Assembly (NCBI GenBank): GCA_001724265.1
Contig: MEDY01000172.1
Coordinates: 1-56,861, forward strand
Direction of reading: 5' to 3'
Source of the DNA: Rhizaria sp. SCN 62-66
Taxonomy: Eukaryota
DNA: 56,861 nucleotides
In this document: positions 1-56,605 of the stretch, one piece after another
Position numbering within the stretch: position 1 is the first letter of the stretch
How the letters are laid out: each line of letters begins with the position of its first letter
The notes under the pieces: generated by a model
The model's input: the letters and a program-made list of their open reading frames with translations, nothing else
Databases searched by the model: none
What the model was told of the DNA's origin: nothing
Position numbers and translations under genes: made by a program

Positions 1-2259
1 GAGTGGTGGGATGCTAACGCGGACGGTGTGGGTGGCAAGTGGAGCACTACGGGTTGCAAGCTTGCCTCTGTCTCGAGCACTAATACCACGACGACGTGCC
101 AGTGCACGCACCTGACTCTGTTCCGCGTCCGACTTGACTTCAATAACTTCCTACCCAGGTTTAACACGCTTTCCGCGGGTGACTTCAAGAACCTTACATG
201 GGCCAACATCCAGGCACACCCGCTTCCACTCATCACATGCGCTGTTTGGTTTGTGGCCTATCTGATCTTTGCGTTTATTGCGGCACTCATTGACCGCCGC
301 AAGGACGCGCGCGCGCTGCGCCACTACCACGGCGAGTGGAGCGACCCGCAGCGCAAGCAGTGGGACGCCGTTACGGGCGACACGTCAGCCTCGCTGCCGA
401 CGTCAGCGATGCTCAACCCCGACGCTGGCGTCGAGAGGATGGCCTTCACTGAGCGCTGGATTGATTTTTCGCGCCACTTGCTCAAGCACGACCATCTCTG
501 GCTCTCTGTCGTGTTGCGTTATGACACCAACGCGTTCTCTTCTGTTGGCCGCATCACGGCGGGCTTTGTGCTCGTGCTCACGGGCTACATGATCAACGCG
601 CTGTTCTTCGGCAGTGCTGACGGCAGCGTTGGCTTTAGCACCATCGTCACCTCAGTCATCTCTGCCGCCATTCTCATCCCTGTCGGTGTGCTCATTAGTC
701 TGCTCTTCGGTCGCTCGCAGCAGGGCCGTCTCAAGTCGGCGATCTACGGCTACGCGGAGCACGTGGCGCAGCTGCAGTACACGAACCGCATCAGCGAGCC
801 GTAGTACGCGACGCGCAACGAGCACCGCATGAAGCGCAACCCGGTTGTCAGCGACGAAGACGAGCGCGTTCTGCTGCATTCAATTGCGCAGGCCGGCGGC
901 TGGACTCATGGTCCTGGCAACTCTTTGATCCCTGAGAACGCGCGCGGTGTCCGTGACGAGCGCGAATTGCGCAACCAGTTACGGCTGCTCGTGCACATCG
1001 ACTATGATCTGTTCATGGTCTGGTTCCGCGTGTCGTGGTCTTTCCCGCTCGGTCTCCGTCTCTTTGGCTTTGTGCTGCTATGGATTTATGTTATCGTTCT
1101 TGCGCTACTGATCATTGTGTACGGTATTCAGCTTGACATGAACAACAGCGACAACACCAAGCAGTGGCTTCAGGCTTCTGCGATCTCGAACGTCATTGAG
1201 ATCTTTGCCATGAAGCCAGTCAGTATCTGCCTGAAGGCATTTGTCTTGCTGATAATATCATTCTGCTTCTGCAACGGCAAGCCTAAGGGCCTGGCATCCA
1301 AGTCCACTCCCGATGACAACTTGACTGTGTACAACGCAATCGAGACGTTCGCAGCTTCTGGTGCTGGCAAGGGCCATAAACACGTCGCGACTGATCTTGC
1401 GCTGGACATCACGCCTGAGCGCGGCACCGAAGTTGCTGTTGTTGGCGCTGGCTTTATTGCTGCCAATGGCGATTACGATGACGCTAATTATGCTGCGCTC
1501 CAGAATTCTAGCTCCACTTTTAACATTAACGGATGTGACAACGGCAGCAGTGGCAGGCGCAACGGCGCGGTGCCTAATTCGGTTGAGATGATACCTCTAG
1601 GCAGCTCCACGAAGTACGAAGCAGTGCATTCGGCCCCGTCGTCCCCTGCCCCCCAGCTGCGCTTCACCGGCTCCGCGCTGCCTGCGGCTCCGGTGGCATA
1701 CGCTGGTAACGACGACTATTACAACCACACGGGCGCTGATACGTGCGACTACACCACTGGGAACTACGACAACAACGGCTATAGCAAGACCGGCGATGAT
1801 TGGAATACGACTAAACCCCATGAGACGAAGTCTGCGTCTGCTACTGCCGCTGACATGTCTCCTGCATTTCCGGCTGCTGCCACGCACCCGCATTCTACGC
1901 CCCCGCCGCCACCGCTGCCGCCAACCCACAACGTCACTGCTGGTATCTCACCCCCTGCACGTCTTGCCGTGCCTCCACCGCCGCAGTCCGCATTGCACAC
2001 CACGCACCGCGGCGAGACGGACACGCTGCCCCCAGGCCAGGTGCCGGTCGTCCCGGCCGTGCCCGCGCCCAGCGGCGGCGTGCCCGTGATGGGGACGCGC
2101 TCCGCACTGGCGTACCAGCAGCGCGATGCCTCCGCTTCCGTGAGTAACAATGGCAACCAGGGCGCTGCGGGTAACGCTAGCGTGCAGTCGTCGCTGCGGG
2201 TGCCGATGCCGCTGCCGAGCCACATCAAGCCTGAGTATCACTCTCCGGATCAGCAGTAA
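1..2259 (+). CDS. Polycystin-1 (PKD1)-like GPS/GAIN multi-pass membrane protein, 5' partial; contains in-frame TAG at 802-804
   Basis: Frame 1 is open from base 1. GPS motif WWD...WSTTGC...CQCTHLTLF, then a TM segment, then the PKD1-like segment HLWLSVV...FSSVGRIT...INALFFG. ORFs 28..804 and 829..2259 are in the same frame and separated only by TAG followed by 8 GC-rich codons. Further TM segments and a Pro-rich tail follow; ends TAA. Confidence 0.75.
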
Positions 2260-6531: not shown

Positions 6532-6980
6532 GCAAGCTCGCAATGCGTTCAGTCACTGGGAATGTGTATTATTCTGACAGAAGGGTCGGACGATTCTTGT
6601 TTCTGCCTAGTTATTATTTAGCTCATGAGACTGGGTCAAAAACACAAACCAATCTTGTGTACTATACACATTAACAATTCACTTAGCTTCTTCATATCAG
6701 CGCATTGCTTTACATCCTTCATATCGGATTCATAGTCACCGGTACACATGCATATCGCTCTACGAGCTATCACTCTCTGAGCACAATGTGTACGTCTTTT
6801 CATACAGATCCAATTCTCATGATCCAGATTTATAAATGATTGCTTGATGTATTTTAAAGCTTAAAACAAGCTTCACCCTTGTTCACCAGAATGTGTTCTA
6901 TATAACGCTTCATTTGGCATACCATAAGCACACACCGGCCTTCATATATTCAATCTTCCGACTTCATTTCACTGTTAGCA

Positions 6981-8122: not shown

Positions 8123-8155
<33 letters not shown>

Positions 8156-8657: not shown

Positions 8658-8690
<33 letters not shown>

Positions 8691-10273: not shown

Positions 10274-13200
10274 ATGTCGGCTGTGAGCGTTTCCGCCGGC
10301 GCGCCCGGCGCCAGTGGCGACGCTGCGGCGTCACACAAGGCCAACGCTGCCTTCTCGAAGGCCGAGTCCCTCTGTCAGGAGGAGATGTATGAGGAGGCCA
10401 TTGTCGCCTACAACGAGTGTCTCAGTCTGGTACGCCGCTCGCCTTTTCGCCATCGCCCTTTGCCTGCCACCTTTCAACGCGCGCCAACATGTTTGTGTGT
10501 TGTCATAACTGCGTTGAATTGATGTATATATCTTGTTCTTGTCCCTGCTCACATTCATCACCGTTCCGCGCTTGCTCACTTTTTGTGCTACAGTCCAACA
10601 ACAAGCACTCTGACGCGCTCACCAACCTCGGTTGTCTCTATGTTGAGGGCCTCGGCGTTGAACAAGACCCCGACCGCGCTACTGAACTCTTCGACGACGC
10701 CATCGCGCTTAACAACTCGCGCGCGATGGGTTTTAAGGCTATGTTGATCGAGCAGGAAGGTGGCGACTCGTACGATGTGTATAAACTCTACGAGCGCGCC
10801 GCCGCGCTCGGCGATATTGAGGGCCTGAACCAGCAGGCGTACATGTTGCACATGGGCCAGGGCGTGCCCAAGAACTTTGTGCGCGCGCTTAAGTGCTATA
10901 CTGAGGCCGCCGAGCGCGGGTCCGCCGACGCGCAGTACAACCTGGGCGCGCTGCACCAGCAGGGCGAACCCGCGGACCCCGAAGATGAGTCTGGCGGATT
11001 CCTCGCTAAGGACGACAGCAAGGCCTTCAAGTGGTATGAGATGGCCGCCGAGCAGGGTCACGCAGGATCGCTGTTTGCGCTGGGGCAGATGTACAAGGAC
11101 GGCTCCGTCGGCGTGAACCAGGACTATACACAGGCGATGCAGTGCTTCCAGGCCGCAGCCGAGGGTGGCGACCTGGACGGTATGACTGAGCTCGGATGCA
11201 TGTATAAGGATGGTTTGGGCGTTGAGCAGGACTACCACGCTGCTGCCGAGTGGCTGCTGCAAGCCGCCGATCAGGTACGTGTCAGAATTTTGCTGTCAGC
11301 TCATCATCCATCCGCTTTTTTGTTTTAAGTCGTTTTGCACTTGGAACGATTTGTTGTATGATTACTCGTCATGATATGGAATTAAAATTGATTTACATTT
11401 TTAATATATGCGATTGCGTGTATCTTCTCTTTGTATATTGACTTTGTTTTTTAAACCGCTCACCTTGTTTGTATCAATCTTGATTGTTTTATATCTGCTC
11501 GCGATGCAGGGCCACGCCGATGCCATGATGGAGCTGGCACCGATGTACAAGAACGGTCAGGGTGTTGACGCTGACCCCCAGATGTGCATGAAGTACCTCT
11601 CCTCCGCCGCGCAGGCCGGCCACCCCGCTGCCCAGCGCTTCGTGGCGCGCCTGCAGACGGTCATGGCCGCTGCGGCCTCTGGCGGCAACATTGAGGACGC
11701 CCTCAAGGCCATCGAGGCCGGCGAGATGGAGCAGACGGAGCGCGGTGCCACGCGCCGCGGCGTCATGTCGAGCATGGCGTCGGGCAAGGCGAGCAAGTTC
11801 GGCTCCCGCATCATGTCCCGCGTCGCGTCGGGCATGCACACGCCCAGACTGCGTCCTGTGCCTGACGACGGCGCTGCGGAGGCCGAGGCCGCGCGGCTCG
11901 CCGCAGAGGAGGCTGCAGAGGAGGCCCGCCGCAAGGCCGAGGAGGAGGCGCGCCTCAAGGCTGAGGAAGAGGCCCGCCTCAAGGCGGAGGCCGAGGCGGA
12001 GGCCGCTCGCCTGGCCGCCGAAGCCGAGGCCGAGGTTGCGCGCAAGAAGGCCGAGGATGAGGCGGCGGAGGCCGCGCGCTTGGCTGCCGAGGCCGAAGCT
12101 GAGGCGGCCCGCAAGAAGGCCGAGGAGGAGGCGGAGGTTGCGCGCCAGGCCGCGGAGGCCGAGGCTGCGCGCATTCGCGCTGAGGCCGAGGCTGAGGCGG
12201 AGGCTGCGCGTCTCAAGGCTGAGGCGAAGGCCGAGGCTGCGCGCTTGGCCGCGGAGGCCGAGGCGGAGGCCGCGCGCATCAAGGCTGAGGAAGAAGCTGA
12301 GGCTGCGCGAATTAAAGCCGAGGAGGAGGCGGAGGCTGCTCGTCTTAAGGCCGAGGCTGAGGCCGCTGCTGAGGCCGCCCGGCTCCAAGCGGAGGCGGAT
12401 GCCGCTGCCGCCGCCGCCGAGGCCAAGGCCGCCGCCGAGGCTGCCGAGGCCGAGGCAGCGCGTGTAAAGGCCGAGGCCGACGCCGCCGCCGCCGCTGCTG
12501 CCGCCGCAGCTGCCGAGGCCGCCCGCAAGAAGGCCGAAGAGGAGGCTGCCGCTGCCGCCGAGGCCCTCCGTCTCAAGCTTGAGGCCGAGGACGCGGCGCG
12601 CAAGCAGAAGCTGGCTGACGAGGAGGCAGCTCGTAAGAAGCGCGCCGAGGAGGAGGCCGCCGCCCGCGAGCGCAAGGCCCAAGAGGAGGCCGAGGCGCGT
12701 CGCAAGCGCGCTGAGGAGGAGGCCGCTGCGCGCAAGAAGAAGGCCGAGGAGGAGGAGGCCGCGCGTCAACAGCGCCTGGCCGAGGCCGAGGCGGCGCGCA
12801 AGAAGAAGCTCGAGGAGGACGCTGCGGCGGCCGCCGCCGCCGCCGCGGAGCGAATCGCAGCGGCCGAGGCGGCGCGCAAGAAGGCCGAGGAGGAGGCGGC
12901 CGAGGCGGCGCGGCGGTGCGCGGAGATCGAGGCCGCCGACGCCGCGCGGCGCGAGGCCGAGGCCGCGGCGGAGGCGGCGCGCATCAAGGCCGAGGAGGAG
13001 GCCGAGGCCGCGCGTCTGAAGGCCGAAGAAGAGGCCGAGGCCGCCCGCATCGCTGCCGAGGAGGCTGCTGAGGCCGCGCGTCTTAAGGCCGAGGAAGAAG
13101 CGGAGGCTGCCCGCGTCGCTGCCGAGGAGGAGGCCGAGGCTGCCCGTATTAAGGCTGAAGAGGAAGCTGAGGCCGCGCGTCTGAAGGCAGAGGAAGAGGC

Positions 13201-14413
13201 AGAGGCTGTGCGCCTCGCTGCTGAGGAAGAGGCCGAGGCCGCTAGGATTAAGGCCGAGGAGGATGCCGAGGCTGCCCGTATCAAGGCGGAGGAAGAGGCG
13301 GAGGCCGCGCGCATCAAGGCCGAGGAGGAGGCTGAGGCTGCCCGCATCAAGGCCGAGGAGGCCGAGGAAGAGGCGGCGCGCCGGCAGGCGGAGCGTGAGG
13401 AGGCCGAGGCGAAGCGCAAGGCCGAGCGCGAGGCCGAGGCGGCCCGCAAGAAGGCTGAGAAGGAGGAGGCCGAGGCGAAGCGCAAGGCTGAGCGCGAGGC
13501 CGCCGAGGCCGCACGGCTCGCCGAGAAGGAGGCCGAAGCGGCGCGCAAGAAGGCTGAGCGCGACGAGGCCGAGGCCCGCAAGAAGGCCGAGAGGGACGCG
13601 GAAGCCGCGCGCAAACAAGCGGAGCGCGACGAGACCGAGGCCCGCCGCAAGGCCGAGAAGGAAGAGGCTGAGGCGAAGCGCAAAGCCGAGCGCGAGGCTG
13701 CCGAGGCCGCGCGGCTGGCGGAGAAGGAGGCCGCGGCGGCGCGGCGGCAGGCCGAGAAGGACGCCGCCGAGGCGCTGCGCCGCGCGCAACGCGAGGCCGA
13801 GGAGGCTGCGCGGCTGCGCGCGAAGCAGGAGGCCGCCGAGGCCGCGGCGCGTGCGCGGGCCGAGGAGAACGCGCGCCGCGCGGAGCAGGGCCTGCCGCCG
13901 ATCGTCGACATGACTGAAGAGGAGCTTGCGGCCGCTGAGGCCGAGGCTGAGGCGGAGACGGTGGTTGAAAGTGCCGCTGCCCAGGCCGAGGCTGCGCCGC
14001 TCGCCGACGCAGAGCCGGTCTCCGACGCCGAGGTTGCGGCTGAGCCTGAGGCTGTGGCCGAGGCCGAGTCCAAGACCCCTGAGGACGAGCCCCAGCCCCA
14101 GCCCGAGCCCGCGGCCGACGAGGAAGAGCCCCTGCTGCTGCTGCCGCTGGATGACGAGACGGGCGGCATGTCCGACGACGACATCGTCATCGTCGACACC
14201 AAGGATCTGGAGCGTGAGGCCGCCCTCGCCGACGCGTGTCCGCCGACCGAGGACGACGACGTCAACGCGGCCAAGAACGCCGTTTCGTTCGCGCAGAGCC
14301 CCGACTCGCCGGCCAGCGAGCGCGCTGAGGCTGGGGAGGACCCCGCGGACGAGGAGAAGAAGGATGCCGAGAATGTCGGGAGCTGCCGCGGGTGCGAATG
14401 CACGATTATGTGA
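10274..14413 (+). CDS. Sel1-like repeat protein with a long E/A/K/R-rich helical repeat region and C-terminal CaaX (CTIM)
   Basis: Exons 10274-10429, 10594-11274 and 11510-14413; both introns are phase 0 and GTACG...CAG. Multiple Sel1 repeats (e.g. AQYNLGALH, LGCMYKDGLGVEQDYHAAAEWL), AEEEAEAARIK-type repeats, terminus GSCRGCECTIM-TGA. Confidence 0.85.
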
Positions 14414-15554: not shown

Positions 15555-15586
15555 ACGTACGTACGTACGTACGTACGTACGTACGT
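15555..15586. repeat. (ACGT)8 palindromic tetranucleotide microsatellite
   Basis: Directly visible acgtacgt... run in the spacer between the convergent Sel1 and RCC1 genes. Confidence 0.9.
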
Positions 15587-32315: not shown

Positions 32316-32347
<32 letters not shown>

Positions 32348-40756: not shown

Positions 40757-43700
40757 TTACGCCGTAGCCCTGCCCAGCGGCGCCGCGTCCTCGTCAGGCT
40801 CATCGTACTGCGGCGGCGCATCCTTGCCCGCGGCGCCTTGAGCTGCATCAACCTTGTTTGTGTCGTCGTCGTCGTGGTGGGCAGGAGCACTGTGAAACAC
40901 GACTGCGGACGCAACCACACCAGCGTCTGTGTCTGCGTCAACGTCTGCGTGCACGTCGTTGATGTCAACGGTCTTGCCGCTATCAGCAGATCCCTCGATC
41001 GCGTTGGCGCCAGCAGCAACAGCACCCATCATCACCATTGTTTGCACGAGGGCTTCGCTTACGCGGTGCCGGCCGCCGCGGCCTTGGCGGCGTGCACCTC
41101 GGCGAGACGCTTGCGCTCGCTGGCCACGCCGGGCAACAGGAGCAACAGCAACAGGAGCAACAGCAGCAGCAGCGTTGACATCAGCCTCGGCGTTAACTTC
41201 AACATCAGCGTTGGCCTCGACATCAGCTGGAGCTGCGCTATCAGCGGTTCCAGCACCAGCGTTGGCATCAGCGCCATCAACTGCGAAAACAGCCGCACCC
41301 GCACTCGCACCCACGGCAGCAGCAGCAGCAGCAGCCGCAGCCACAGCGTCAGCGCCATCACCGCTCTTCTCCTTCTGACCGCGACGGCAGCAACAGCAAT
41401 AGGCGATGATAATGATAGCAATCAGCAGAGCAGCACCGCCGGCAGCAGCGCCGATGATGATAGGCAGAGAGTCACTACCACCGCCTCCGCCTGCGACAGT
41501 ACCGTCGTCAGTGCCGTCACCGCCCACGCCGCTGTTGTCACCGGGAACGCCGTCGGTGCCGGGGTCGGGCTTCACAGGGCCAGTAGGATCAGTAGGCACT
41601 GTGGGATCTGTAGGTCCAGTAGGGTCAGTGGGTCCAGCGGGCTGATTAGTGCATGTGTTAGCGCCGGTGCGCAGCGTCTGCGCGCAGGTAGTAAGAACAC
41701 CCTGCACGCCGCACTGCTTTGTTGCGGGGCAGTAGACGCACGACACCGAGGCCTCGAGCACCTCGAGACAGGCCTCGCAAGCGTTAGACGTGGGCACGCA
41801 CAGCGCGTACGCCGTCAAAGACGGGAAGGCCGCCGCGCTTGTCGGCGGCGCCGCGTTGGCGCCAGACACGGACATCAGCGACGAGGCGAGACTGGCGGAC
41901 GACGCGGCTGCGTTGCCGCCCATTGACGACGCGGCGCTGTTGTTGGCGTCGACGGCCGCAAAGCGCACGCTCATGGTCACGGCGTGCACGTCGCCAGTGT
42001 TGGCGCGCACAAACGACTGCTGCTGCTGAGGGAGCACCGCGGCGGAGGACGAAGCGGCCGCAGCGACGCTGGCGGCGGCGCGCGCAAACGGACGAGAGCC
42101 GCTGCCGGATGCACTAACACCAGCCGGCGCCGTGGCCTGCGTCTGTTCAAGCAGCCCCGCGGCCTGCAGGCGGTACCGGTGTGAAAACGGGCTGATCACC
42201 GCGTTGGCGGCAGAATTAGCAGCAGCACGAGCAAAAGGAGAGCCAGCGGCAGCAACAGTAAATGCTGGAGCAAGCTGCTGCGCATCTGCCTTGCTTTCTT
42301 TCTTGGCATCATTTTTGTCGCTGTTTCCACTGCCAAAGATCAAATCCTTCGCCGTCTTCAAGGCGTAGTCTTTGATCTCTGCGGTAACGCGCGTCTTGAG
42401 CGTGCCAAGTGCATCAGCGAGGTGGTTCGACACCAGTGCCTCGAACGATTGCGTCTCGGTGGGGTTATCAAAGTTGGGTGTAATCTCATCCTCGTCGGCA
42501 ATCAGCATCGTAATGATTTGCTCAGTCTCCCACTCAGCAGGGCCGTCCTTAGAAAGCGTCGTCTTGAAAAAACACGCGTCTGCGACGTCGAATTTAACTT
42601 GGGTAGCATTGAAATAACTCCGTTTGCTGTGATCGAACACTTTGATGTCGATGTCGTGCGCGTACTCGGCTGCGCGAATGCCTACGTCAACATCAAAGCG
42701 CAAGCGGTGCGGCTCAGTACAGGTGCCAAACGCCACTAAAGCAACAGGCGTAAACGAGGGCATACCGTCCAAGTCGAAATCAGCAGTTGCGTTGGCGTAC
42801 AATGGCAGTAGAAAACTCGCGCTGACGAAGCTGCTTGCCTGGAGCTTGAGTTTCGGCAAGAACATAAACTCAAACTCTGCGTGTCCTTTGATGTCGACGT
42901 TGTGCGTCCAATCGTAGCGCAGATCGCTACGCACAACCGTAAAGCCGTCGGCGTCGTTGTACGCCAGCTGCATGGGGTCCTGAGTAATGTGGCCGCGTAC
43001 GTTAAGAGACCCCTGCGCTTTTAAGCTGCCAGTGATGTTGATACCAAACCCGAGGTTTACACCAAAGCTAAAATCGATGGATGCAATGGAGAAACTGGCG
43101 CCAACCAAGTCGATCGAGCCTAAGTTGTAGCTTTGGTCTGGCATCTTAGCCTCAATGGACGCCATGGCGATCGCGTCGACGTACGCCCTCAGGGTGCCTG
43201 TGGAGACGCCAGCCTTAAACGTGTCGATCGGGCTTGTGATCTCGAAGAAGATTGTGTCGAGCCGTGCACTACCAGTAGCGTAACAGTTGGAGCAGGCGAC
43301 AGAGGCGCTAGCGTGTGTGATGTACTTGCCACAGCATAGTTTTTTGGAAGCAAAGCTTGTGTCGGTAGAATCGCAGTCGACGTCAGAGCAGCTCACTTCC
43401 TTCTCGAATGTCTTTTTTGCGCGCTGGGTTACGTGGTCGAAGTTGAAGCCTTCCGCGGTGGCAAGGGTGGACGTGACTGAAATAAAAGGGGACTCCCAAG
43501 TGTCGCAAAAAACGCCAAGCGCAAAGCAGTTGTACGTAATGCGAATGTAGTATGGTAAAGGTGACGCAGCTAGAGATTTTCCAGAAAATGTCACAGTGAA
43601 AGACGCACCGTTTGCGATTGTCCTGGTGCTAACATCGTTTTGTGCAAAGTCTGGCAACCCAGGAATTGCGCGGTACAAGTCGATCTCACCAGTAATGGAC

Positions 43701-46700
43701 TTGCCTGCAAGCGAACGCAAACTGAAGGTTGTGGGCTGGCCGGCAGGAAGTGTGCGACTTAAATCAGGCGAGACAAGGACAAAGACGTCGGGGTTAACAA
43801 CTGAGAGCGTTTCAGAACCCCACTGGTCGCAATCTCCGTCGACGCAGTTGTACTTGAAGATGAAGGAGTACTTGCTCGTGAGCGAGGTGACGGCGGGGAA
43901 CGCCTGAGCAACTTCGTACTCGCCGCCCGGGACCACGCTGCCAGTGAAGGTGCGCGAAGCAACCACGCGCTACTTGAAGTCGCGCTCCACCAAGTTGATC
44001 GTAATGCCGGTATTAATGTTCAGACTTGTCGACTTGAAGCGCAGTGGAATAGGCTTGTTGTACTTGATCACAGCGGTCGGCTCAAGAAGCTCAAGAACGC
44101 TATACGTTGTAACACGAGTGGAGCTCCAATGCGAGCAGGCAATAGATCCACAGTCGTACGAAATCTTGGCGTAATGTGCGCCTACTGGTGGCGGGAACGA
44201 GCAATTGAACTGCACAATCCCGCTGCTCGGCACAATTGTCGGCTTTGTGTCCACGACCGATAGCTCAGCATCGAACCATAGCTTGACGTCGGTGTGGCAC
44301 GACACAGTGATTGGCTGGCCAATCCTAGTAGAGCGCGCTTTGATTATGAACGTGTGCTTACTTCCTGCGGGTGCCGTTAGCGCCGAAATAAGAGTAAAAT
44401 CGGTCGATAACGGCAGCGAAAACTGGTGCGACTGTGACGTGGCGCCGTTGCCGTACTCGAAGTAAAAATACATCGGATACTTCGACCCTTTAACAGCAGG
44501 AATGTTAAAGGAAAATGTGGAAAAGCTGGGGACATTTTGCGTCAATGTGTAAAAAATCTCGTCTCCAACTGCTTTGTCATCGTACAGAGTAACTTTGTTT
44601 GTTGTCGCGGAGCTATATCCTGATTGAAACACAGCAGTAAACGGCTCGTCTGCCGGAAGAATCTGTTTAGTTGTAGGTGAGATCAACTTGAAATGCGACA
44701 GATAGAAGCGTGTTGGGGCTGATTGCACAAACCCGCAGGCACTAGAATCCGTGCCCTGACAGAGCGTGCGCATCTCAACGTAAAATTCGTCGTCGTAACT
44801 GAATGAATACGTGCCAATATTAAAGTAAACTGTAAACCGTTGTTGCACGCCTGCCACGAATGAAAAAGTCCCTTCACGCCCGTCAACATCAGAGTCAGGT
44901 CCCGCAATATCTTCCTTGAGTAAGAATATTAAACGAACATTCTGCACGTTGCGGCTCATTGTAACCGTGAACACTTTGCTGACAGTTGAGCCGTTGACAA
45001 ACAGATTTTTCGACAGCTCAACATCATCCATCCCCACTGTTGGAAGTACATAGCTGCGACTTGCTGACGTCCATACAAACGAGCCACACTTAAGACGGAA
45101 ATGCACGTCTGCCGCGGCTTTAAAAGTGAGCCCGACCAAGGTCATTATATTCGGGGAGAATGAAACGACCGTAACGTATTCTGTGATTGTGTCACCCAAG
45201 AAGCTTGGAATAACGGCGCTTAGTGACGGCGTGCAAGACGCTGGAAGCGTTGCATACTGGGCGATTTGAAGAGTATAGGGAGAGCCATAGACAAGCTGCT
45301 GCGACGACGACGGAACAACAAGCTCAAAATCGGTGATCGAAAACTTGCTTGACCACCAATAGTCCGAGCTGGGAAAGCTAGAACACACAACACGAAGCGC
45401 AAACACTTGTTCTGCGCTGTTGCCGCCGCGCGCGACACGAAGACTTACAGTGTGAGAGCGCCCCGACTGTGTTGTGATCTTTACGGTAGAGTTTGACATA
45501 ACGTCGTCCGAATAGCGGGTGATGCCTTCATAAACAACTGACACGACGCATTCTTTACTCGAGCTGTAAGCTCCAGACAGAATCTGAAAATCGATCCATT
45601 CGTTGGCCTTAATAGAAAGCTTCGGGTTTAACCAGTAAAAAGTCATATCGCCGTGATCAAGCTTTTTGAAGCCTGCTGACGTGTTCGTGTTTGCAACGCC
45701 GTCAAATGCAGCACTGGCAGCTTCACCCCGCACAGCACCGGGTGAAACAGCAAGCAACGCAGGTGTTGCAGCCGCCTCAGACGCTGCAACGCCGGCGGTT
45801 GTAACTGCACGCTCCAGAGCAGGCTCGGCTTGCAAAAGCTCCGCGTGCGACGTCCGCAGCACCATGGCCTCCGGAAAGAGCTCAGACAGCTCAGCCAGCA
45901 CTGCCGCGTCCGCTGCGTACGTTGCGCCTGCGCCTGCGTTAGCGTCTGCGTCTTCCTCGCTTAAAGAGCCAGTCATAGACGCGAAGCCACTGCCAAAAGC
46001 GGTTTCGGCAGTTTGTTTCTGTTGCTGTTGCTGTTGCTGCCGCTGTAGCGCAGCGGCAGGTGCCAGCGAGTCTGGAAGCAGCGACATGGACGCAAGCGCG
46101 CCGCGCGCAGCCGCGCTCCAACTGTTGCAGTACGCCTTAACAGCAGGGTGCGCCATCACCTGCGCCCAGTCTGCGGCGCTGGGGTCCGCAAACAACATCG
46201 ACACGGCGCCAGAGCGGAACAGCGCACCGGACGCCGCGGGCGCCGTGCGCAACGCCAGCGTCTGCAGCCCTGTCGTGGGGTCGCGCGTTACAGTCACGCC
46301 GTTGCGCAGCACGCGGCGGTAAAAGCCGCCCGCGAGAGACGCGCTCACGCTGGGCTCCGACGACAAAGAAGACGATGACAACGCGGAGTCGCGCGGACGC
46401 TCGGCTGCGGCGTGCGCGCGGGCGTTAGCAGAGCCAGCGCCGGAGCCGGAGGCTGAGTGAGCGCGAGCGTAAGGGTGAGCGCGGAGCTGTGTGGATTGAT
46501 TGGCAGCAAGCGCGGCCGCAAGCACGGTGGCATCTAGACCGAAGTCAAGACTCGTCACAGAGTCAGCGTCGTGGTCGTAATCGTCTATGTAGTTGCTGTC
46601 GTTGTCAACGTCGTAGTCGTCGTCGTCACTGACAGAGCTGTCAAAGTCACTCACGTTCACAACAGCCTCTGTGATCGCACCACCGAAAGCGGCGTCACGC

Positions 46701-47620
46701 AGAATAGGCTCGGACTAAACAATGACCGAGCTATCCAGCTGCGGAGGCTGATGAGAAATCGGAGTGTCGATAACAAAAGTGACGCCAGAATCAAACGCAG
46801 ACGCAGACTCAGACGTGGATGCGGATGCAGCGCCTGCCTTGGCCTTGCGACGGCGTGTGCGTGTGCGTGTGCGCGTTTGCTTGCGAGCACTTGCGGACGC
46901 AGCCTTTGCGTCTTCGTCCGCGCTCTCAACGCCAGCGTCGGTGCAGCCCACGCTGTCTGCGCCGGGCGCGTACAGCAGCCAGCCGGGACGCAGGCCGGCA
47001 CCGTGGGCCCACGCCGCGGCGTCGGCGTCGGCGGGAATGCCGTTCACCGTTACCGTCGACGAGCTGCACGTAATCGTGGGTGCAGAAGTTAAAGCCGCGG
47101 CAGCATTGGGCGCGAAAGACAGCGCGTCGAGCCTGAGCGTGTTGGGGCGCAGGACGGCGTCGTAGTTGTAGTCCGTGCGGCGCTGCGACGCGGCGTCGAG
47201 AAATGACACGGAGTAGTTGTACACGCGCGAGCCGTCGCGCAGAAACGACGTTGGGGCGGGCACAAACGTTAGCGGGCTGCGCGCGGGCGAGCGCGAGGCG
47301 CCGGGCTTGTTGAACTGCACAGGGGCAGAGTGTTAAAGCAGTGCATGATGAGTGGAGCGCATGAGTGGACGCGAAAAGACAAAAGATGAGGGAGGCGAGA
47401 AATTTTGAGTTGTTGAAGTAATATGTAATTTTGTACGTTGGGGGATAGCGTGGGTGCGCTTTGGATACATGTCGCGCTAAAGCAAAAATATGAAGCTGTC
47501 CGAAAAGTAACTGTGACGTACAACCAGGACACCGAGAACGGTGAAGGTGACGGTGATAGCGACACCGAAGAAGATTGCGAGCGCAATCATAATCCGACGG
47601 CACGTGGGTTTAGCCCCCAT
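40757..47620 (-). CDS. Giant (~2218 aa) cell-surface protein: N-terminal hydrophobic anchor, tandem beta-rich modules, PSI-like Cys cluster, PTD stalk, C-terminal TM; in-frame TAGs at 46717-46715 and 43972-43970
   Basis: Exon 1 47620-47522 (MGAKPTCRRIMIALAIFFGVAITVTFTVLGVLV), intron GTACGT...TGCAG, exon 2 47314-40757. Three track ORFs (46715..47320, 43970..46660, 40757..43966) share one frame and are split only by TAG. TM IIIGAAAGGAALLIAIIIIAY followed by CCCCRR. Ends TAA. Confidence 0.75.
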
Positions 47621-48501
47621 TGTGCGTGGATCTACGCGCGGGGTGCGTGGAGAAACGCAGGAGAAACAACAATGGTCCAGTTGAGCCCAGAAGCAGCACG
47701 TTCAAAGAAAAAATGGACACATCGAGGTGGGGGGCGGGGGGGGGGGGGCAAAAGAAAATTTGACATTTTTAAGGGTGTGGAGAAAAAATACAGGTGTGAA
47801 CATGCGCCAAATAGCAAGAGTGGCGGTAGTATAGTTTGTTTGTGCAGTACGGCGTGCATTATACGCGTCTTCTGAGGCGAGCTCAGCGGGGCCGCACAGG
47901 ACCAATGTCCAACAAATGCAACATTGGAATCAAACAAGCATATGATTCGTATGCACAAGTCTTAAATAAATAGGGAAATATAAAGCTCAAGCTTAAAATA
48001 TGATACATTGCCTTGAAACCAAAGCATAGGCGTTTCTCATGACGTAGGTCGGCAGATTATTGACGGCTTGCACACTGCAATCCAACAATTGTCGCGAATT
48101 TACACCTACGGCAGAGATCTATAGTCCGCACGATCTTTTTCTTCTTTTTCGCGTCTTAAATCATGACATGACTCACTAATACAAATTAGTATAATATAAA
48201 ATAACATGTTTGATGCAGTAGATAGTGGATTTATTTTTCAATCTGGCTTGATCTCAGAGTTCTATGTCTACAAGTGTATTTTTGTATTTCGTGGACAATA
48301 TGGGGCTTTGCGCAAAAATGTCCCGACTATGCACTATGCTTGCCATCCGAATTTCGAAGAAACGCCTTCGAAAAAACGCCTTTTACAATCACAAGTTACA
48401 CTGCAATGTTAGAAATTTGTAACTATACACCGAAGCGATGTATATGAGGATGGAATAACATGTAACTATTGGCCACACAAGACCACTTATAAATTCGGGG
48501 A

Positions 48502-48591
48502 CCTCGCCGCCGCCCGCCTCGCCGCCGCCCGCCTCGCCGCCGCCCGCCTCGCCGCCGCCCGCCTTGCAGCTGCCCGCCTCGCCGCCGCCCG
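48502..48591. repeat. 15-bp GC-rich minisatellite (CCTCGCCGCCGCCCG), about 6 units
   Basis: Directly visible tandem array with one degenerate unit (CCTTGCAGCTGCCCG). Confidence 0.85.
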
Positions 48592-49143
48592 CATCCCCCC
48601 GCACGCCGCTGCACATTGCAAGCCGCTGCACACCACATGCCGTCTCACATCACAAGTCGCTTCACACCACATGCTGAATCGCCAGCGCGGCCAGTTGCGC
48701 AGCGATATCAATAGACGCAGCCAGCGGCGCCCCCGCAAACCGTGCCGCGTCCTCAGCCTCCAACAGCTGCGCGTTACCTGCCCCAGCCCCAGCTCCAGCC
48801 CCCATCCAGCCCCAGCTGTTCATGTTCGTATTGCTAGAGCCAGCACCCGCGCTGTTTTGCAGCTCCGATTGCGGCCCTGACCTTGGCGCGCACGGCGTCA
48901 AACTGCCTATGCTCCTCCTCACACCGCTCCAGCAGACTCAGCCTTACAGGACCAGTACCAGCGCCCGTGTTTGCGCCAGTGCCAGTGCTCGTGTTAGTGC
49001 TCGCGCGAGTGCTCCGGCTAGGCCACATCGCACCTGTGACAGAAGCGGCAACAGCACCAACCACTTTTGTCACTGTCCCATATACTGTTTATGCAAGAAG
49101 TCGTGCGTCACATTATATTAGTCCAAATGACGTTCTATCTACG

Positions 49144-49184
49144 ACAAATGGCGTGAGATAACATCCTCACTGTTCGAAGCCAAG
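49144..49184 (+). repeat. Copy B of the 41-bp dispersed direct repeat (copy A at 40558-40598)
   Basis: Same orientation as copy A, 39/41 identical. Confidence 0.85.
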
Positions 49185-49460
49185 TACACACTTACCGATC
49201 ACCGATCTTTTCTCGGAACCAGCGCAGCCTTCACCACAAGCAGAAAACCACACACACTACTCATCGACACGTTGATGTTGCATTGTATCATCCGTAATCG
49301 AACAATATTATTTTGTATTGCGAATTATTCTGGTATAGTCACATTTTTCACGTTATTAGTTTTCTTAGGCAGTTACACTTTCTGCGACTGTTTACGTTTT
49401 TTTTTCACTCTTGGTTGTCAAGGTCGTGCAACTGGCAGGTATCGGTATCTAGCTCTCAGC

Positions 49461-52400
49461 ATGAAGCCGATGTCACCCATAGAGGAGGCACGCGTACGCA
49501 AAGTCTTTTCAGGCCGCGCTTTCTTACCCCGCGCCATTGAAAGCATTGCCCTTCGCCACCAGTGCCCCTCCGCAAACCCCGCAGCAACTGCAGCTGCTGA
49601 GGATGAGGTGCTCGCACTAATCGCCTCCGCTGTTGCCGTCTTGTCCCCCTCGGCGCTTGATGGGCTGCTCGCCGACGCCCTGTTCCCCGCGGAGCTTGCT
49701 AACTTCCACCCTTCCCTTGGCGCGGGCGCCGTGCGCGGCCCCAACGCTGTCCACGCCGCCGTGCGCTTCGACCTCCCGCGCGCTCTCGCCGCGCTGCTCG
49801 CGTTGGGCGCGCCCGCCGCGGCGCCCGTGCTGGGCTTCTCTGTTGTCCACGTTGCGGCGCTGCTCGACCGCGCGGCCTGCGCGGAGGTTCTGCTCCGCGG
49901 CGTTGCGCCCGAGGCGTGGCGCGACATGTGCGAGCGCAGCGCCGCGGCGGGCGCGACGGACGCGCTCGAGGCCTGCATCGCATCGTTCGGGCGATTCGTC
50001 CCCACGCCCGTGCGCCACAACGCGCTGACGGCGCCACTCCGGTACGACGCCGCGCAGTTTGCCGGCGCCACCGCGCTCGCGACGCTGTCGCCGCCGCGTA
50101 GCCGGCCGCTGGCTCTCGCGGCCTCGCTGGGCCACGCCGCGGTCATGGCGGTCCTCGCGCGCCCCGGCGTGTGCGCGGCTGTGCACCGACACCTGGCGTT
50201 TGAGCAGGCGCGCGGGCTGCTGGTCGCGGCCGTGCAGGGTGGCAGCGCCGAGTGCGCGCGGCTCGCGCTCCGCTGGGGACTGCGTGAGACGGCCGAGCCA
50301 CACCGCGGGCCTGGTCGTGGGCTCCGCGATGACGTGGACAACGACGACGGCGACGACGAAGATGGCGGCGACGACGACGGCGACAACGGGCTAGCCGCTG
50401 AGGCGCTGATCGACCGTTTGACGGTTCAGAGCGTCACGGAGGTCGCGCGGTCAACCCCCAGCAACGCCCCGGATAGCTGTGCCGCGCTCAGCCACGCTGC
50501 ATCTAACCACGCTGCGTCCAGCAATGCTGCGCTAGACGTGCTCCGCGTCGCCGTGCCGCGGGCGTTCGCGGACTCAGACGCGGCCGCTGCGCTGGCCACG
50601 GAGCGCGCCCGTCAGCTGCGCGACGAGCAGCGCCGCGCGGCCGCGCTTGCGAAGCAGTTCTCGCATAACGCAGACGCGGAGGCGTCGCAGGGACTTGGTG
50701 CAGCGGTCGCGGCGCTCTTCTCTGCGCGCGTCTGCAGCCAGGGCTCCGGAGTGCTGCTGGCGCCCGCGGTTGCTGCGGCAGAGTCCGCGGTGCAGCGCGC
50801 GCTGACGCAGCTTGCGGCCGGGCGTCTGCAGTGCCGCTCTGTCGTCGAAGAGCACGGCGCACAGAAGCTGCGAGACGTTGTTTTGGCGCACACGGGAGAG
50901 ACATGTATGGTGATCGTGACGAAAACGACTGTGTGCGAGGACGACGACGACGAGCGCGCTGTCTTAGTTGAAACAGCAGTGAACGCAGACGGAAACGTCG
51001 CTGACTTTGTCGCTGTCACACTGACTGATGGTTTCCTTGAAATTCTCGAAGATTACGACTCAGAGCTGGACTCGAGCACTGAATCAGACTCTGACCCCGA
51101 ATCTGATTCTGATTCTGACTCTGGTTTGGAGGCCAACTCGAAAACCACCTCAAAGCACGAGCACGCGAGAGCTACAGCGCCCGACGAGTCGGACCCCGAA
51201 CAGACGCCGGCACCACAGACGCCGGCTGAACGTGTTGCTCTTTATTGTGACACCGGTGTCAGGACGTCGCCCATGCCTGCGTGGCTGTCGCAGTCTGCAC
51301 TTGCGCCGCTAGACTTTGGCGCGGTCCTGTTTCTTGTCCGGACCTTGCTGTCTGCACGCGTTTTTCCGCCGCGTTCGAACCACGCCAAAGAATTGCGCGG
51401 CCTTCGCGAGCTAGCAGAGCATTAGCTCCATCTTCTGGTGGTCGATGCCACGCCGAGCTTCGATATTCTCGCCCGCAGCAAGCTCGCCACCGCGCTTGCC
51501 GGGTCTAACTTCACCACCGTGACGGCGATGCTGCGCAAGCCGGGTTTTCTAGAGGACGTGTTCGACCGCTCGGCGCTGACTCCATAGGACACCGTTCTGT
51601 GGGGTCTCGAGGCGCGCCCCAGCGCCGCGCGCGGCAAGTGGAAGCTTGCAAGGGGTGGACTTGCCACGCACGTGCCGCACTCGCTGGCCGGCGCACGCTG
51701 CGCACGTGCGCTCCGCTGTGTGCTGATGTGGCCACTGCTGCCGCGGCACTTCAACATATACCACCCGCGCCGTGCAGCCGCGAACGTGCCTCAAATTGAC
51801 GCATTTGATGAATGGCATCCGGTCCCCGTACGGGAAGTGTTGCGCCGTGCATTTTTGCCCAAGGAGCTCGTGCAGTCCCTGGTGGAAGGCGTTGCAACGG
51901 GCGCGATTGACGAAAGCTTTGGCGCATTGCTTGATCCGTATGCTGAGACAGCCCTTCACGAGGTCTTGCGCGTTGCAATCGCGTACAACTGGATGGCGCC
52001 GGCGCGCGCGTTACTTCTGTTGGAACGTCTCGGTGCGCCTTTAACCGCGAGCGCGCCGCCCCCGGTTCACCCGGCACTGCTGATCCCGCGATTTCGCAGC
52101 TTGCTCCTGTCCGTGGCGCAACTGCTCGCCCACTGTCCAGTGCCGTCGGCGCCTTCTCCCGCCGCCGTGGCCGCCGCCGGTGAGTTTGCCGACCCCGCGG
52201 CAGACGTTGATCTCGCGTTTGAAACACCTACCAGCGGTGTGAATTTTACTACAGCGTATGCTGAGGCGCTTGCAGGCCTTCGCGAGACCGTCGCCGCGAC
52301 GCCGGGTGCCTTGGCGGCGTTTGACGGCCGTGTCGCGCGGCTTGTCACCCGATTGGCGAACGCTATCAAAGTGAAAGACGCCGCCGCGGCGGCCACCGCC

Positions 52401-53702
52401 CTGCTGGTGTCGACGCGCGTGTCTGCGCCACAACTGATGGTGCGTCCGCCTGCCCCCGCCAGTGCGCGGCAGCCATTCGCCCCGTTCCAGGGCGCGCTGG
52501 CCGCCGCGGTCCAGTGGGCGCTGCACGGCGCGCCGGAGACGGGCGCAGCGTGCTCCGCGCTGCTAAGCGAAGGCGGCGCTGGTCTCTCGATCAACGCCGC
52601 GCTCGCGCCGCTGTGGCTGTCTGCGGGGCCACTGCTGCACCGCGACGATGTTCCCATGGGCGCGGCGCTGCACCGCCGAGTGGACCGCACGCGCGGGGAC
52701 CCGCCGCTGGCGCTGTGCGCCGCGGGCCGCGATCTGCGTGCGCGCGCAGTGCAGCGAACGCTCGCCGCGCTGTGGCCTGCGCATCGCCGCGCGCTGATCG
52801 ACGTGAGCCTGGCGCCCGGGCTGTTTCAGAGCGCGTGTGCAACGGGCGACTCCGCGCTGATTGCCTCCGTGGTCGCTGCGGTACGCGCACTCGAGCCGCA
52901 ACGGCCGCTCGCAGCGCTGTCGCCCACAGCGCTGCCGTCTGCGGCGCTGCCGTCTGCGGCACTGTGTGCGCACCGGGGATACTGCGCACTGCTCGCGGGC
53001 ACGGCATCACCCTTCGCGCCTCTCACGGCCGAGGACGTCACTGCGGCGCTCGACCAGCTTCTCATGCTATTCCCGGCGAGCGAGATTGCGACGCACAGCT
53101 GTCGCGGCTGCTCCGCGCTGCAACCGCACGAGCATGTGGCGCGGACACCGCTGATTCCGCTCGAACACCTGGAACTCGTGACGACAACGCGTGGCTGCGA
53201 CGTCTACGAGCACTTGTTCCCCGGTGCGCCCACACTGATGTGCGACTGGGCCTTCGTCTTTGCGCAGTGGGCGCCCGCTGAGGGCTTTTTCCTGCGTCTC
53301 AGTGCGCCGCGGCAGCGCGCGTGGCTGGCGGTGCTGCAGCGCGGGGCGCGCGCTGGTTTGCTTTCGGCGCCGGCGCTGCGGGATGCGCTGGCGAGCAGTC
53401 GGAACGCGACTTCGGAGAACAGCATCAGGGGATTGCGCGTCAACGACGGCGCAAACGTTCTCGAATTGAGTCGTTTGAAGTGGAGTCATACTCCGGATGC
53501 GGTTGAGAGAGACAACCCGGTGGAAGGAGAAACGGTTGAAGAGTTCGTGCTCCGTGTGGCGACGAATTGGCCAGCGTGCGTCCAGAGTGATCGTGGAGAA
53601 ATGCACCCGCTTCCAGTCGATGCTGCAACACTTAGGTCAGGACTTGCGGCCGTGTGGAAATTCTTTCGAACACTGGATGAAGAGTCCCGAAAGCAAGAGT
53701 AA
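49461..53702 (+). CDS. Large (~1413 aa) divergent ankyrin-repeat protein; in-frame TAGs at 51423-51425 and 51585-51587
   Basis: Ankyrin-like units NAVHAAVRFD..ALLALGA, VVHVAALLDR..CAEVLL, PLALAASLGHAAVMAVL, LLVAAVQGGSAECARL. ORFs 49272..51425 and 51672..53702 are in frame, and the 246-nt gap is GC-rich, coding-like and interrupted only by TAG. Ends TAA. Confidence 0.72.
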
Positions 53703-54238
53703 ATATGTCACGTGTAACGATAGGTGACATCTTTTCAAGTTGACGCTTCTACTGATTTCGACATTAAATAAGCCTAAGGTTTTAAGCTGGGTTTATACAG
53801 GAATTAATACATAGATCAAATCGGATATCGCAACTTTGAACTCAATAGTAGATATTGTGTCGGTGTATCCTTGATTTTGCGATGTCACCACGAGCGAATA
53901 TTTTTCATGTTCACAACATTGTTTGGAGTTGAGAGGCGAGGTTGAATCTCGACAGAGGTATCGTCAGTGACATTAAGACATGTTAATCTTAGATTTAACA
54001 GTAGTAACCTATGCATTAAGTATTTCATATTTTCATATAACTCTATGTATGCACGCTGAGCGAGTTTTTTTAGTTTGGGTCACACAGCACCTAGCTCGAT
54101 GAGTCCGATGAATGCCAATCCGCTATTCAAAGAACGAAAAAGAGACATGTTGTCATGTGACAACACATCTTACTGGCACTAAACCTCGTCTCATTTGCTT
54201 AAAACCCGTGTCTATTTTGTCTGACATTAACGCCTAGC

Positions 54239-56605
54239 ATGAGTTGGATTGAACGCGATCCATGCCCAGAAGGGGACAATTGTTCAAACCCCATTTGCAA
54301 AAACGGACACCCAACTCGGCCGTGTTTTCACGTCCAACTGCACAAGTGCAAAACTGCGATTTTAGGTAAGCTGTGTCCATTCCGTCACATTAAGGTTCTT
54401 CCGCTGTGCCGCCACGAGACCCGCAAGCAGTGCAACGAGATACTCTCCGCCAGCATCAACCGCCAGGGTTCGAAGATCATCTGTGCATTCCGGCACACTG
54501 ATGATCCGGAGTCGGAAGCCCGCCCCAAGGTCGATGACCACAAAGGTGGTCATTTCAAGGGTGGTGATCGCAAGGGTGGTGACTACAAGGGGGGCGAACG
54601 TCGCTCTGGCCCCGCGAATGACACTCACGGCAGCGCGCGCCCGCATAAGCAACATGCGACTACATCCTCGCGCTCGCCGCCGACACATGCGCACGCATCC
54701 GCACTTGCGCCCGCCCCGGTGTCCTTGCCCCCGCCCGCGGCCGCAGCCGTGTTTACGCGCGCGCACGACCGCGCCGCGCCCGCGGAGCGCGTGGCGCGGC
54801 CCGACGAGGCGTTACCGTTCCACGCCCGCGTGCCGTGCCCACCTGCGGCGCAACGCTACGTGTTCCCCGCGCCCGGCAGCTGCGGCGCGTGGCAGACTGA
54901 GCTGCGGTGCCGCCTTGCGCCGTCGGACGCGCCGGGCGTGTTCCGCGTGCAAGCGGTGTCGGCCGAGGCACTGGCGGCCGCGGAGGAAGCACTGCAACGA
55001 CTCGTGCTTGTTGCCACGGCGGCGACGCACGACTGGCAGCACGAGGCCGTCGACGTCGCGATGGCGGACGGCTCGCGCCTTGCTATCGGCGCCGGACTGG
55101 TCCCCGTGGGGCCCGCGCAGCGCGCGACCACGGCATTTGTCACTGCGCACGACATCAGCACTGAAGTATACGCCGAGGCCAACGCCGCCGACGCACAGGA
55201 AGACGTGTCGATTACGCGCGACCTCTGCGTACGCGTGGGCTGGAATACGCCTGCGCACTCCGGCACCGCGCGGCTTGAGTTCCGTTCCGCCGCCGCCGCG
55301 AACGCGTCGATGCTGCGGCTGCGCGGGCACTGGCAGGGTTTCACTCTGGAGCCGCAGGGCTTGGGCTGCAACGACCTGGCACTCGACAACGCAGAGCTGC
55401 CCGCACTGAGCGACGACCTCATGTACTTTGCCGCGGCCCACAACAGTTTTCCTGACGACGTTTCTGATGTTCGTGGCGCTGGACACGGCGGGCCGCGGTT
55501 CCTGGTGCGCGTTACGGGGATCAGCGCGGAGCTCTCTGCTGTGTCGTTCCGCATCATGGTGGCGACGCTGCCCGGCTTGAGCTCGGCTGCGGTGCTGTAC
55601 GAACATTGCATCCCGGGCTACGGACTCGCTGACCCGGAGGAGCTGCCGCCGTGGCTCGCCGCGTTTGTCAGCGACGACGCTGCGCACGCGCCGCTGGGGT
55701 CATTCACCCCCGCGACCGGCGCGCACTCGTGGCTGCTGTGGCCTGCTCGCGGTGACTCTGCGGCGGAGCTGGCCGATCTTATTGGCCGCTCGCTCGCCGC
55801 CGCCTCGGAACAGAGCGATGGCGCTGTGAGCGCCGAGGTGATGCACGCGGCGACGGTGCAGCTGCCGCGCGCGCTGTACTTTACCTCGCTGGCGTTTATT
55901 GTCACACAGATGTCCAATGCGGCGCGAACGATTGACTGCGGCAGGCCTGCCGTGGGCTTCGCCATCCACCGCGTTAAGCAGCGTTGCCAGATTGTGCTTG
56001 CTACACGGTCCGACGCCGCCACCGCCGCCGTCGCCTCCATCACGTTCAAGCGCGTTGCGCGCACTGAGATTCAGGTGTGCAGCGCAATGGCGAATTTTCC
56101 CGCGCAGGCCGCGCTGGCTGCACTGCGCGCGGCGACTGTGCTGGTGCGGTACGACGCCGCGCGCTCAGCAGTCGTTGTGATGTCGCTGAGCGCCGATCAC
56201 GAGGCCGCTGTGACGCAGGTGCACGACCTCAACGCGCAGCTGGAGCAGGGCCCCGACGCGCGCTGCGCGGTTGTGGTTGCGGGACTTAACGGCCGCACGC
56301 GCGCGCAACTGCTGTGCATGGTGTGTGGCGCGCTCGTGCCGCGCGCGTTCTCGGGAGGCGAGCTGTCCGCGTGCGGCCACTCGGTGTGCGCGGGCGAGTG
56401 CGCGAGGAAGGCTCTCGCTGTCATGACTAACTAGCGCGTCGCGCGCTGCCAACACGCCGACTGCCTGCGCCGCGCGGCTGTAGCGGAGGCGCTGGGGACA
56501 CGTCCTCCCCAGCTTGCTGTGCGCGACCTCCGCAGTTTTGGGCTTTCTGAAGATAATGTGTCGCAGATTATAATGGCCGCCTTGTGCGCGCGCATGAACA
56601 CATGA
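54239..56605 (+). CDS. CCCH zinc-finger / RRM-like / C-terminal RING-like protein (788 aa); in-frame TAG at 56432-56434
   Basis: Three N-terminal CCCH-like fingers (e.g. CPEGDNCSNPICKNGH), KGGD repeats, RNP1-like GTARLEF. C-terminal CMVC...CGH..C...C-[TAG]-CQHADC needs readthrough to obtain its last Cys pair. Then 56 more codons to TGA at the GC-to-AT boundary. Confidence 0.7.

Follow-up and report, generated by a model that had tools for sequence, protein, structure and literature searches.

In-frame TAG codons in five genes of a GC-rich eukaryotic contig point to UAG as a probable sense codon, with UAA and UGA as terminators

Which of the three canonical stop codons still end translation in the organism behind contig MEDY01000172.1 (assembly GCA_001724265.1, deposited as Rhizaria sp. 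SCN 62-66)? The question is raised by seven TAG triplets that lie inside long reading frames of this contig, whose whole analysed stretch of 56,861 nucleotides (nt), with a guanine-plus-cytosine (GC) content of 61%, is referred to here as the window. A preliminary description made from the letters alone had taken TAG for a sense codon, with TAA and TGA remaining stops, and this core reading is supported in the window by homologues, by introns and by gene-call breaks that recur in public assemblies. Judged from sequence, it is likely that an amino acid is inserted at UAG and that UAA and UGA still act as terminators. The DNA would be nuclear and would belong to an uncultured, GC-rich, intron-poor microbial eukaryote of bioreactor and wastewater metagenomes.

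All seven TAGs were found where the preliminary description had placed them, each in frame and together distributed over five long genes (Table 1). In the window, GC-rich coding blocks (0.6-0.8) alternate with AT-rich spacers (0.3-0.45), and its eukaryotic genes comprise those for a kinesin, an RCC1-repeat protein, ribosomal protein S19e (RPS19), a TrmO-domain protein, a Sel1-repeat/coiled-coil protein, a PEMT-like protein and a SulP/STAS transporter, along with an alpha-tubulin pseudogene. According to the gene models, 14 genes are intact, which together hold 14,279 sense codons and 7 in-frame TAGs, and no in-frame TAG had been overlooked, the remaining TAGs of the long frames belonging to 5' leaders or 3' splice sites. 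Counting of the 14 gene ends reproduced eight TAA, six TGA and no TAG, with GC dropping after each. This match to the earlier count requires that the Sel1-repeat frame be united with the 1000-codon frame behind it in one gene, 10393-14413 (+), by way of intron 11275-11509; the apparent TAA of the Sel1 frame is not a terminator, since it lies inside that intron. The claim that no TAA or TGA interrupts the five TAG-bearing genes is correct as an observation; as an argument it is partly circular, because TAA and TGA were used to delimit the frames.

The statement that coding-like sequence continues in the same frame past the TAGs was borne out, since open frame, codon bias and GC all run on. The frame stays open for 484, 820, 1070, 914, 53, 704 and 56 codons after the seven TAGs, in the order of Table 1; after 12 true terminators, the next in-frame stop lies 2-43 codons away in 11 cases and none occurs within 50 codons in one. 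Over the next 150 nt, the GC content is 0.54-0.71 past the seven TAGs and 0.34-0.55 past the 14 terminators (Mann-Whitney P = 2e-4). With a log-odds score of codon usage that was trained on the TAG-free genes, frame 0 is the best on both flanks of all seven sites, with 150-nt values (upstream/downstream) of +25/+15 at 802, +22/+26 at 43972 and +6/+35 at 46717 (+18/+53 over 300 nt), and a six-frame map displays a single unbroken coding frame through each of the five genes. The seven definable spliceosomal introns all start with GTACG, end with AG, are AT-rich and measure 113-235 nt, and, as the preliminary description had held, no such intron covers any of the seven sites. Two loose intron-pattern matches over TAGs were rejected, being GC-rich (0.67 and 0.54) and such as would remove sequence that aligns with homologues.

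Table 1. Genes, TAG codons and TAG-open reading frames of the window
Feature	Coordinates	Strand	Remarks
Gene G1	1-2259	+	5' end cut by the window; Pfam GPS, E = 4e-8; ends in TAA, GC then 0.41
SulP + STAS transporter gene (P0002)	35787-38375	-	ATG at 38375; ends in TGA
Surface-protein gene (P0003)	40757-47620	-	exon 1 47620-47522; intron 47521-47315 (GTACGT...CAG); exon 2 47314-40757; ends in TAA
Orphan gene (P0004)	49461-53702	+	1413 codons; no Pfam family; ends in TAA
Orphan gene (P0005)	54239-56605	+	CCCH-like and RING-like Cys/His patterns; ends in TGA
TAG 1	802-804	+	loop between membrane segments of GPS-motif membrane protein (G1)
TAG 2	38250-38252	-	codon 42 of SulP/STAS anion transporter
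TAG 3	43970-43972	-	middle of repeated extracellular domain, large surface protein
TAG 4	46715-46717	-	low-complexity insert, large surface protein
TAG 5	51423-51425	+	Ala-rich orphan protein (P0004)
TAG 6	51585-51587	+	orphan P0004, 53 codons past TAG 5
TAG 7	56432-56434	+	Cys/His-rich orphan (P0005), 56 codons ahead of TGA end; weakest of the seven
TAG-open frame	1-2259	+	752 codons
TAG-open frame	35787-38501	-	904 codons
TAG-open frame	40757-47332	-	2191 codons
TAG-open frame	49131-53702	+	1523 codons
TAG-open frame	54203-56605	+	800 codons

Homologous proteins continue across the TAG at three of the seven sites, namely 802 (through P0150), 38252 (P0008) and 43972 (P0131). In G1, hydrophobic stretches, read as membrane segments, flank the TAG on either side. 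The 90% cluster of the downstream fragment of this GPS-motif protein includes P0149 (1352 amino acids, aa) and a full-length allele, P0150 (1837 aa). While P0149 terminates exactly at the position of TAG 802, P0150 is identical to it over 1352/1352 residues, has glutamine (Gln) at the TAG position and runs onward to the TAA. Four residues set the G1 protein of the window apart from both, and TAG 802 is common to two haplotypes that differ at 4 amino acids. The documented gene readings of the collection are only table 11 and TGA=W, which suggests that the Gln of P0150 is a real codon.

The TAG of the SulP gene lies between the only upstream ATGs, both of them candidate starts, and the conserved domain, for which the Pfam match begins at residue 149 of P0002, and the next ATG after the TAG falls within the first membrane helix of that domain. 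A public gene call, P0007, starts at a GTG directly past the TAG; the N-terminus of P0008 (883 aa, 63% identity) aligns without interruption on either side of it, with Ala opposite. As a separate observation on this gene, its best matches, besides two eukaryote-like relatives (63% and 41% identity), are bacterial at 33-40% identity, the named ones being mostly from Bacteroidota, and a bacterial origin of the gene is possible on these similarities.

In the large surface protein, exon 1 encodes a hydrophobic signal anchor upstream of both TAGs, and a membrane anchor near the C-terminus lies downstream of both. A HMMER scan of 1.84 billion representatives with this protein returned six proteins at E <= 0.001. 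Two of them, P0130 and P0132, are the organism's own fragments of the same protein, each ending at a TAG, and another, P0131 (451 aa, 36% identity, pairwise E = 3e-63), spans TAG 43972 with about 180 residues before it and about 200 after, placing Ser opposite the TAG. The next internal repeat of the surface protein places Gln opposite TAG 43972, although this alignment of the protein with itself is weak (E = 0.005). A metagenome scan with the surface protein gave 593 pattern matches and no relatives. P0135 was considered as a relative upstream of TAG 46717 and rejected, its similarity not being significant (E = 1.1); hence, TAG 46717 has no comparative support.

For the two orphan proteins, searches with P0004 and P0005 recovered only fragments from the organism itself, and these fragments stop where the frame of the window continues. 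P0128, P0138 and P0140 (ENA and Logan) end exactly at TAG 51423, the 49-aa fragments P0129 (ENA) and P0142 (JGI) end exactly at TAG 51585, and the database fragment P0006 ends at TAG 56432, after which GC is 0.65, compared with 0.34 after the TGA of the gene. An argument from a RING finger around TAG 56432 was abandoned, as its Pfam matches are below threshold (best E = 0.011, 16 bits, cut-off 31); nor was anything drawn from the single-sequence AlphaFold model, which is poor (mean predicted local distance difference test score 47), and an ESM Atlas search with the orphan G3 yielded nothing usable (TM <= 0.19). Apart from its TAGs, P0004 is split in one public assembly exactly at the Glu codon GAG 50781-50783 (+), with the other 650 residues identical. 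This implies a stop allele in place of GAG, and TAG would be the candidate, as the sole stop one substitution away from GAG. In another assembly, P0004 carries a single Ala-to-Ser change.

All five TAG proteins are stored in public protein collections as two or three fragments each, and in assemblies from ENA, Logan and JGI alike the gene calls are interrupted at the same TAGs. These recurrences bear on the explanation that the TAGs are artefacts, that is, errors of assembly or sequencing, or introns that went unrecognised. The contig is metagenomic, which gives that idea some footing; however, the same breaks occur in up to seven contigs, whose samples may not be independent, and the identical codon is present at 38252 in the JGI locus L002, which is the same locus as the window and 99.86% identical to it over 4,881 nt. 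Given, in addition, the absence of an AT-rich GTACG...AG intron over any site, an artefact has a probability close to nil. L002 is one of two loci found by a metagenome scan with RPS19, the other being L001, and neither adds in-frame TAGs.

Several observations weigh against a sense reading of UAG and were set against the evidence above. In the protein searches, no homologue spans 46717, 51423, 51585 or 56432, i.e., four of the seven sites, for which the support comes from coding signal, GC and the open frame. Both 150-nt flanks score positive at just four of the seven, with a slightly negative value on one flank at 51423 (-2.5/+24), 51585 (+24/-4) and 56432 (+7/-3). A three-frame version of an unbiased scan for stops that lie within coding signal was set aside as noisy, since GC-rich genes give positive scores in their antisense frames too. 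The six-frame version recovered only four of the TAG sites and also flagged three other TAGs and one TAA with 150-nt flanks, and three TAAs and one TGA with 240-nt flanks. Those extra stops that could be placed are at gene or intron edges, 34144 and 35701 being the two without placement. Since the scan missed sites and flagged TAA and TGA at edges, codon usage alone is no clean test. The residues opposite the TAGs are inconsistent as well: Gln in the allele at 802, Ala in the orthologue at 38252, Ser in the homologue and Gln in the internal repeat at 43972, to which the Glu/stop variant is added. The Gln of P0150 would count for nothing if a TAG=Gln table had been used in translating its contig. 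Moreover, the TAG/Gln and Glu/stop variants among near-identical assemblies also resemble nonsense polymorphisms. No transfer RNA (tRNA) gene is present in the window, L001 or L002, no gene for the release factor eRF1 and no ribosomal RNA are present in the window, and Rfam at gathering thresholds gave no match in the window.

Gene ends carry limited weight in the same balance. That none of the 14 terminators is TAG holds as a count, but it is weak as a lone argument, as UAG ends are rare in a standard-code fornicate: Euthynema has UAG at 7/170 gene ends according to PMC9161772. With a usage as low as that of Euthynema, the absence would be unremarkable, and the sample is only 14 gene ends. 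If TAG made up 15-25% of stops, the absence would have P = 0.02-0.10, which is suggestive only. A similar limit applies to the argument of the preliminary description that pseudogenisation would give all three stop types as well as frameshifts. The first half is weak because 63-65% of random nonsense changes under this codon usage yield TAG, so that, if nonsense mutations arose at random, seven TAGs out of seven would have a P of only ~0.04; more weight attaches to the absence of frameshifts.

Frameshifts also bear on the explanation that keeps the standard code and takes the TAGs for premature stops in fast-evolving genes that can be dispensed with, which would be either pseudogenes of recent date or alleles segregating for nonsense changes. 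It draws on the mutational preference for TAG, on the poor conservation of the five genes or of the regions around their TAGs, and on the variants among near-identical assemblies, in which a stop alternates with Gln at 802 and with Glu at 50781. Nonsense changes make up 2.1-2.6% of random substitutions under this codon usage; therefore, seven of them imply about 270-330 substitutions in about 18 kilobases (kb), and many insertions and deletions would be expected, yet the five TAG genes contain no frameshift in about 6,000 codons. Five of 14 genes would have to be null in one haplotype, no gene is interrupted by TAA or TGA, and past four of the TAGs the coding frame is kept up for 484-1070 codons, along with its GC and codon bias. 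The stop at 802 would also have to be common to two haplotypes 4 amino acids apart. A genuine pseudogene in the same window, that of alpha-tubulin at 39139-~40350 (+), can be cited for gene loss at this locus, and it also shows the picture of true gene decay in this genome: exon 1 is intact and followed by a GTACG intron (39171-39366), but there are two frameshifts in about 1.2 kb, near 39660 and 40050, with divergent insertions and truncation before the C-terminal third. Premature stops are accordingly considered a very improbable source of the seven TAGs.

How UAG is used in the window bears on another alternative, in which the codon is ambiguous: it would be a terminator for some genes elsewhere and would be read through in weak contexts by a low-level suppressor or near-cognate tRNA, the proteins then coming partly truncated and partly full-length. 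In-frame UAG makes up 0.05% of codons (7/14,279) and is 6.4 times rarer than in the off frames (89/28,602). The kinesin, RCC1, RPS19, TrmO and Sel1 proteins are free of it, and the TAG of the SulP gene sits upstream of the domain; within the window, UAG is confined to fast-evolving, lineage-specific genes or gene regions. This rarity and this absence from conserved genes and domains would suit leaky termination, as would the base that follows. In eukaryotes, a pyrimidine at +4 is a leaky termination context, and a pyrimidine follows the TAG at 6/7 sites, where 37% would be expected for codon position 1 (P = 0.013). Among 15 stops, namely the 14 terminators and the Sel1 TAA that turned out to lie in an intron, the next base is a purine in 11. 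The pyrimidine after sense TAGs may reflect selection for a weak termination context, although seven sites are a very small sample and too few for a context rule. With no TAG among the 14 gene ends of the window, and with two genes that carry two TAGs each and would compound any inefficiency, leaky termination is rated unlikely. Rarity, absence from conserved domains and pyrimidine context also fit a recent or inefficient reassignment of UAG, or residual competition with termination.

Correction at the RNA level would likewise leave the standard code in place, with UAG edited to UGG (Trp), as in the adenosine-to-inosine (A-to-I) editing of the sexual stage of filamentous ascomycetes, or changed by other editing. 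The intron signals of the window (GTACG..., CTAAC) presumably resemble fungal ones, and this was counted in its favour. Fungal A-to-I editing, as described in PMC11156358 and PMC10776026, shows a preference for U at -1 and for hairpin loops, with UAG a frequent target. The U at -1 is trivially true of UAG, and the hairpin-loop rule fails at five of the seven sites: the A of UAG lies in a predicted hairpin loop in two of the seven local folds (38252 and 46717), whereas in the other five the TAG is outside such a loop, being stem-paired at 43972, 51423, 51585 and 56432, with only its U paired at 802. The sister allele at 802 has Gln and not Trp, and no homologue has Trp opposite any TAG. Reports on restorative editing in Sordariomycetes describe a pattern that is like the window in affecting essentially TAG only in otherwise intact genes, but that is stage-specific, leads to Trp and concerns well under 1% of genes; 5/14 affected genes are far above the 71 such edited pseudogenes that PMC10776026 reports for the whole genome of Fusarium graminearum. 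Editing is, on this balance, hardly credible.

If UAG is a sense codon, which amino acid does it encode? Gln is favoured because of the sister allele at 802, the weak internal-repeat alignment at 43972 and precedent, and its prospects may be put at about even. All aligned TAG positions are variable and none is conserved; the Ala, the Ser and the Glu/stop variant do not discriminate between amino acids, as they stand at such positions. Leu, which is found at none of the five aligned or variant residues, is unlikely, Glu slightly more so, and some other amino acid is a minor possibility, a little ahead of either.

We infer that UAG is translated in this organism by means of a dedicated tRNA and an altered release factor, and that the reading would hold throughout the genome. 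By analogy with known UAG-only codes, a tRNA whose anticodon is CUA would pair with UAG and not with UAA, a mechanism for which PMC5304391 and PMC11687900 argue in those codes. Weaker recognition of UAG by eRF1 is probably combined with such a tRNA(CUA). The scarcity of UAG and its restriction to weakly conserved genes would be as expected for a codon that was recently captured or is poorly decoded.

Nuclear codes in which UAG alone is reassigned are described for Iotanema spirale (Gln) and the rhizarian exLh (Leu) in PMC5304391, and for Protocruzia and several phyllopharyngean ciliates (Leu or Gln) in McGowan et al. 2024 (PMC11687900). Iotanema spirale, a member of Fornicata, has likewise reassigned UAG alone, with UAA and UGA terminating and UAG never doing so (Panek et al. 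2017, PMC5304391), and its amino acid would match too if Gln is right here. According to the same source, however, it has 204 in-frame UAGs in 126 scrutinised genes, conserved ones included, against 7 in 14 genes of the window and none in conserved domains, and its stops are UAA 104 : UGA 15, against 8 : 6. It is also a gut flagellate known from a transcriptome (PMC5304391), set beside the window by code features alone. The exLh lineage (Sainouroidea) is, like the window, a non-ciliate with UAG-only reassignment, and its UAG is scarce in highly expressed genes; with 384 in-frame UAGs in 71 genes, UAG is far more frequent there than in the window (PMC5304391). Its UAG encodes Leu, the residue that, as noted above, is found opposite no TAG or variant stop here, all of these being variable positions. 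Protocruzia and the phyllopharyngean ciliates also reassigned UAG alone and kept UAA, with an expected tRNA(CUA) unable to read UAA, but the "widespread usage" of UAG described for them in PMC11687900 contrasts with its rarity in the window. The window, at 61% GC, has spacers that are AT-rich, genes reaching 6.6 kb and GTACG introns of 113-235 nt, and source contigs measure up to 89 kb. In GC, gene length, introns and contig size, it is, as we take it, unlike ciliate macronuclear DNA. Literature searches aimed at UAG reassignment brought up no paper on such a code in a wastewater or GC-rich non-ciliate eukaryote. The type of code itself is already known, and the window may belong to one of the named lineages or represent a new independent origin.

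The two related loci display further variation around RPS19. L001 carries, at 505-933, an RPS19 copy in which 14/429 nt differ, all at third positions and with no amino-acid change, between flanks unrelated to the window. L002 1-1670 matches the window from RPS19 on, with seven third-position differences in the first 171 nt, and its upstream region differs, containing a Rab-like GTPase; L002 may be a recombinant or chimeric assembly. L001 and L002 represent at least two further RPS19 copies or haplotypes, and prokaryote genome contigs searched with RPS19 yielded no relatives. Of the words sampled from 46900-56800, 0.95-0.99 occur in DNA runs whose label is bioreactor or wastewater metagenome, and 0.18 in a polyA metatranscriptome run; such word shares are no evidence of expression or habitat.

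Other features of the window stand apart from the code. Exon 2 of the Sel1 gene opens with another Sel1 repeat, followed by about 2 kb of 33-nt tandem repeats (11910-13848), which encode an Ala/Glu/Lys/Arg-rich repeat, presumably a coiled-coil. An AT-rich spacer downstream of the RCC1 gene contains a short GTAC-repeat run at 15358-15584 (-) (GTACGTACGTAC...), which gave rise to numerous spurious intron candidates that overlap one another. Upstream of the surface-protein gene, near 47735, there is a stretch of about 19 C (one G), and a GC-rich island (0.57-0.68) without a clear coding frame occupies 48300-49050 between two genes, with seven copies of a 15-nt tandem repeat at 48502-48607.

For the annotation of this organism, the practical consequence is that its eukaryotic bins from wastewater would be mis-annotated and seemingly incomplete, since standard gene callers cut at every TAG. 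For the evolution of the code, nuclear codes in which UAG and UAA differ in meaning are limited to a handful of lineages in the accounts of PMC5304391 and PMC11687900, and each new case tests the uncoupling of the two codons. A GC-rich, non-ciliate-looking case with very low usage of UAG would stand close to the beginning of the path to reassignment and could reveal the order of its steps, i.e., loss of UAG as a terminator, gain of a tRNA(CUA) or change of eRF1. Tentatively, as a reading that is rather less likely than not, we propose an independent, early-stage capture of UAG for Gln in a lineage so far without a known code deviation, in which UAG would already have been dropped as a terminator and would still be a rare sense codon in weakly constrained genes, with a bias toward weak contexts and with TAG and Gln alleles interchanging, as at 802. 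If this is true, the organism would offer a natural snapshot of the codon capture path, and it would be abundant enough in reactors to be followed for years.

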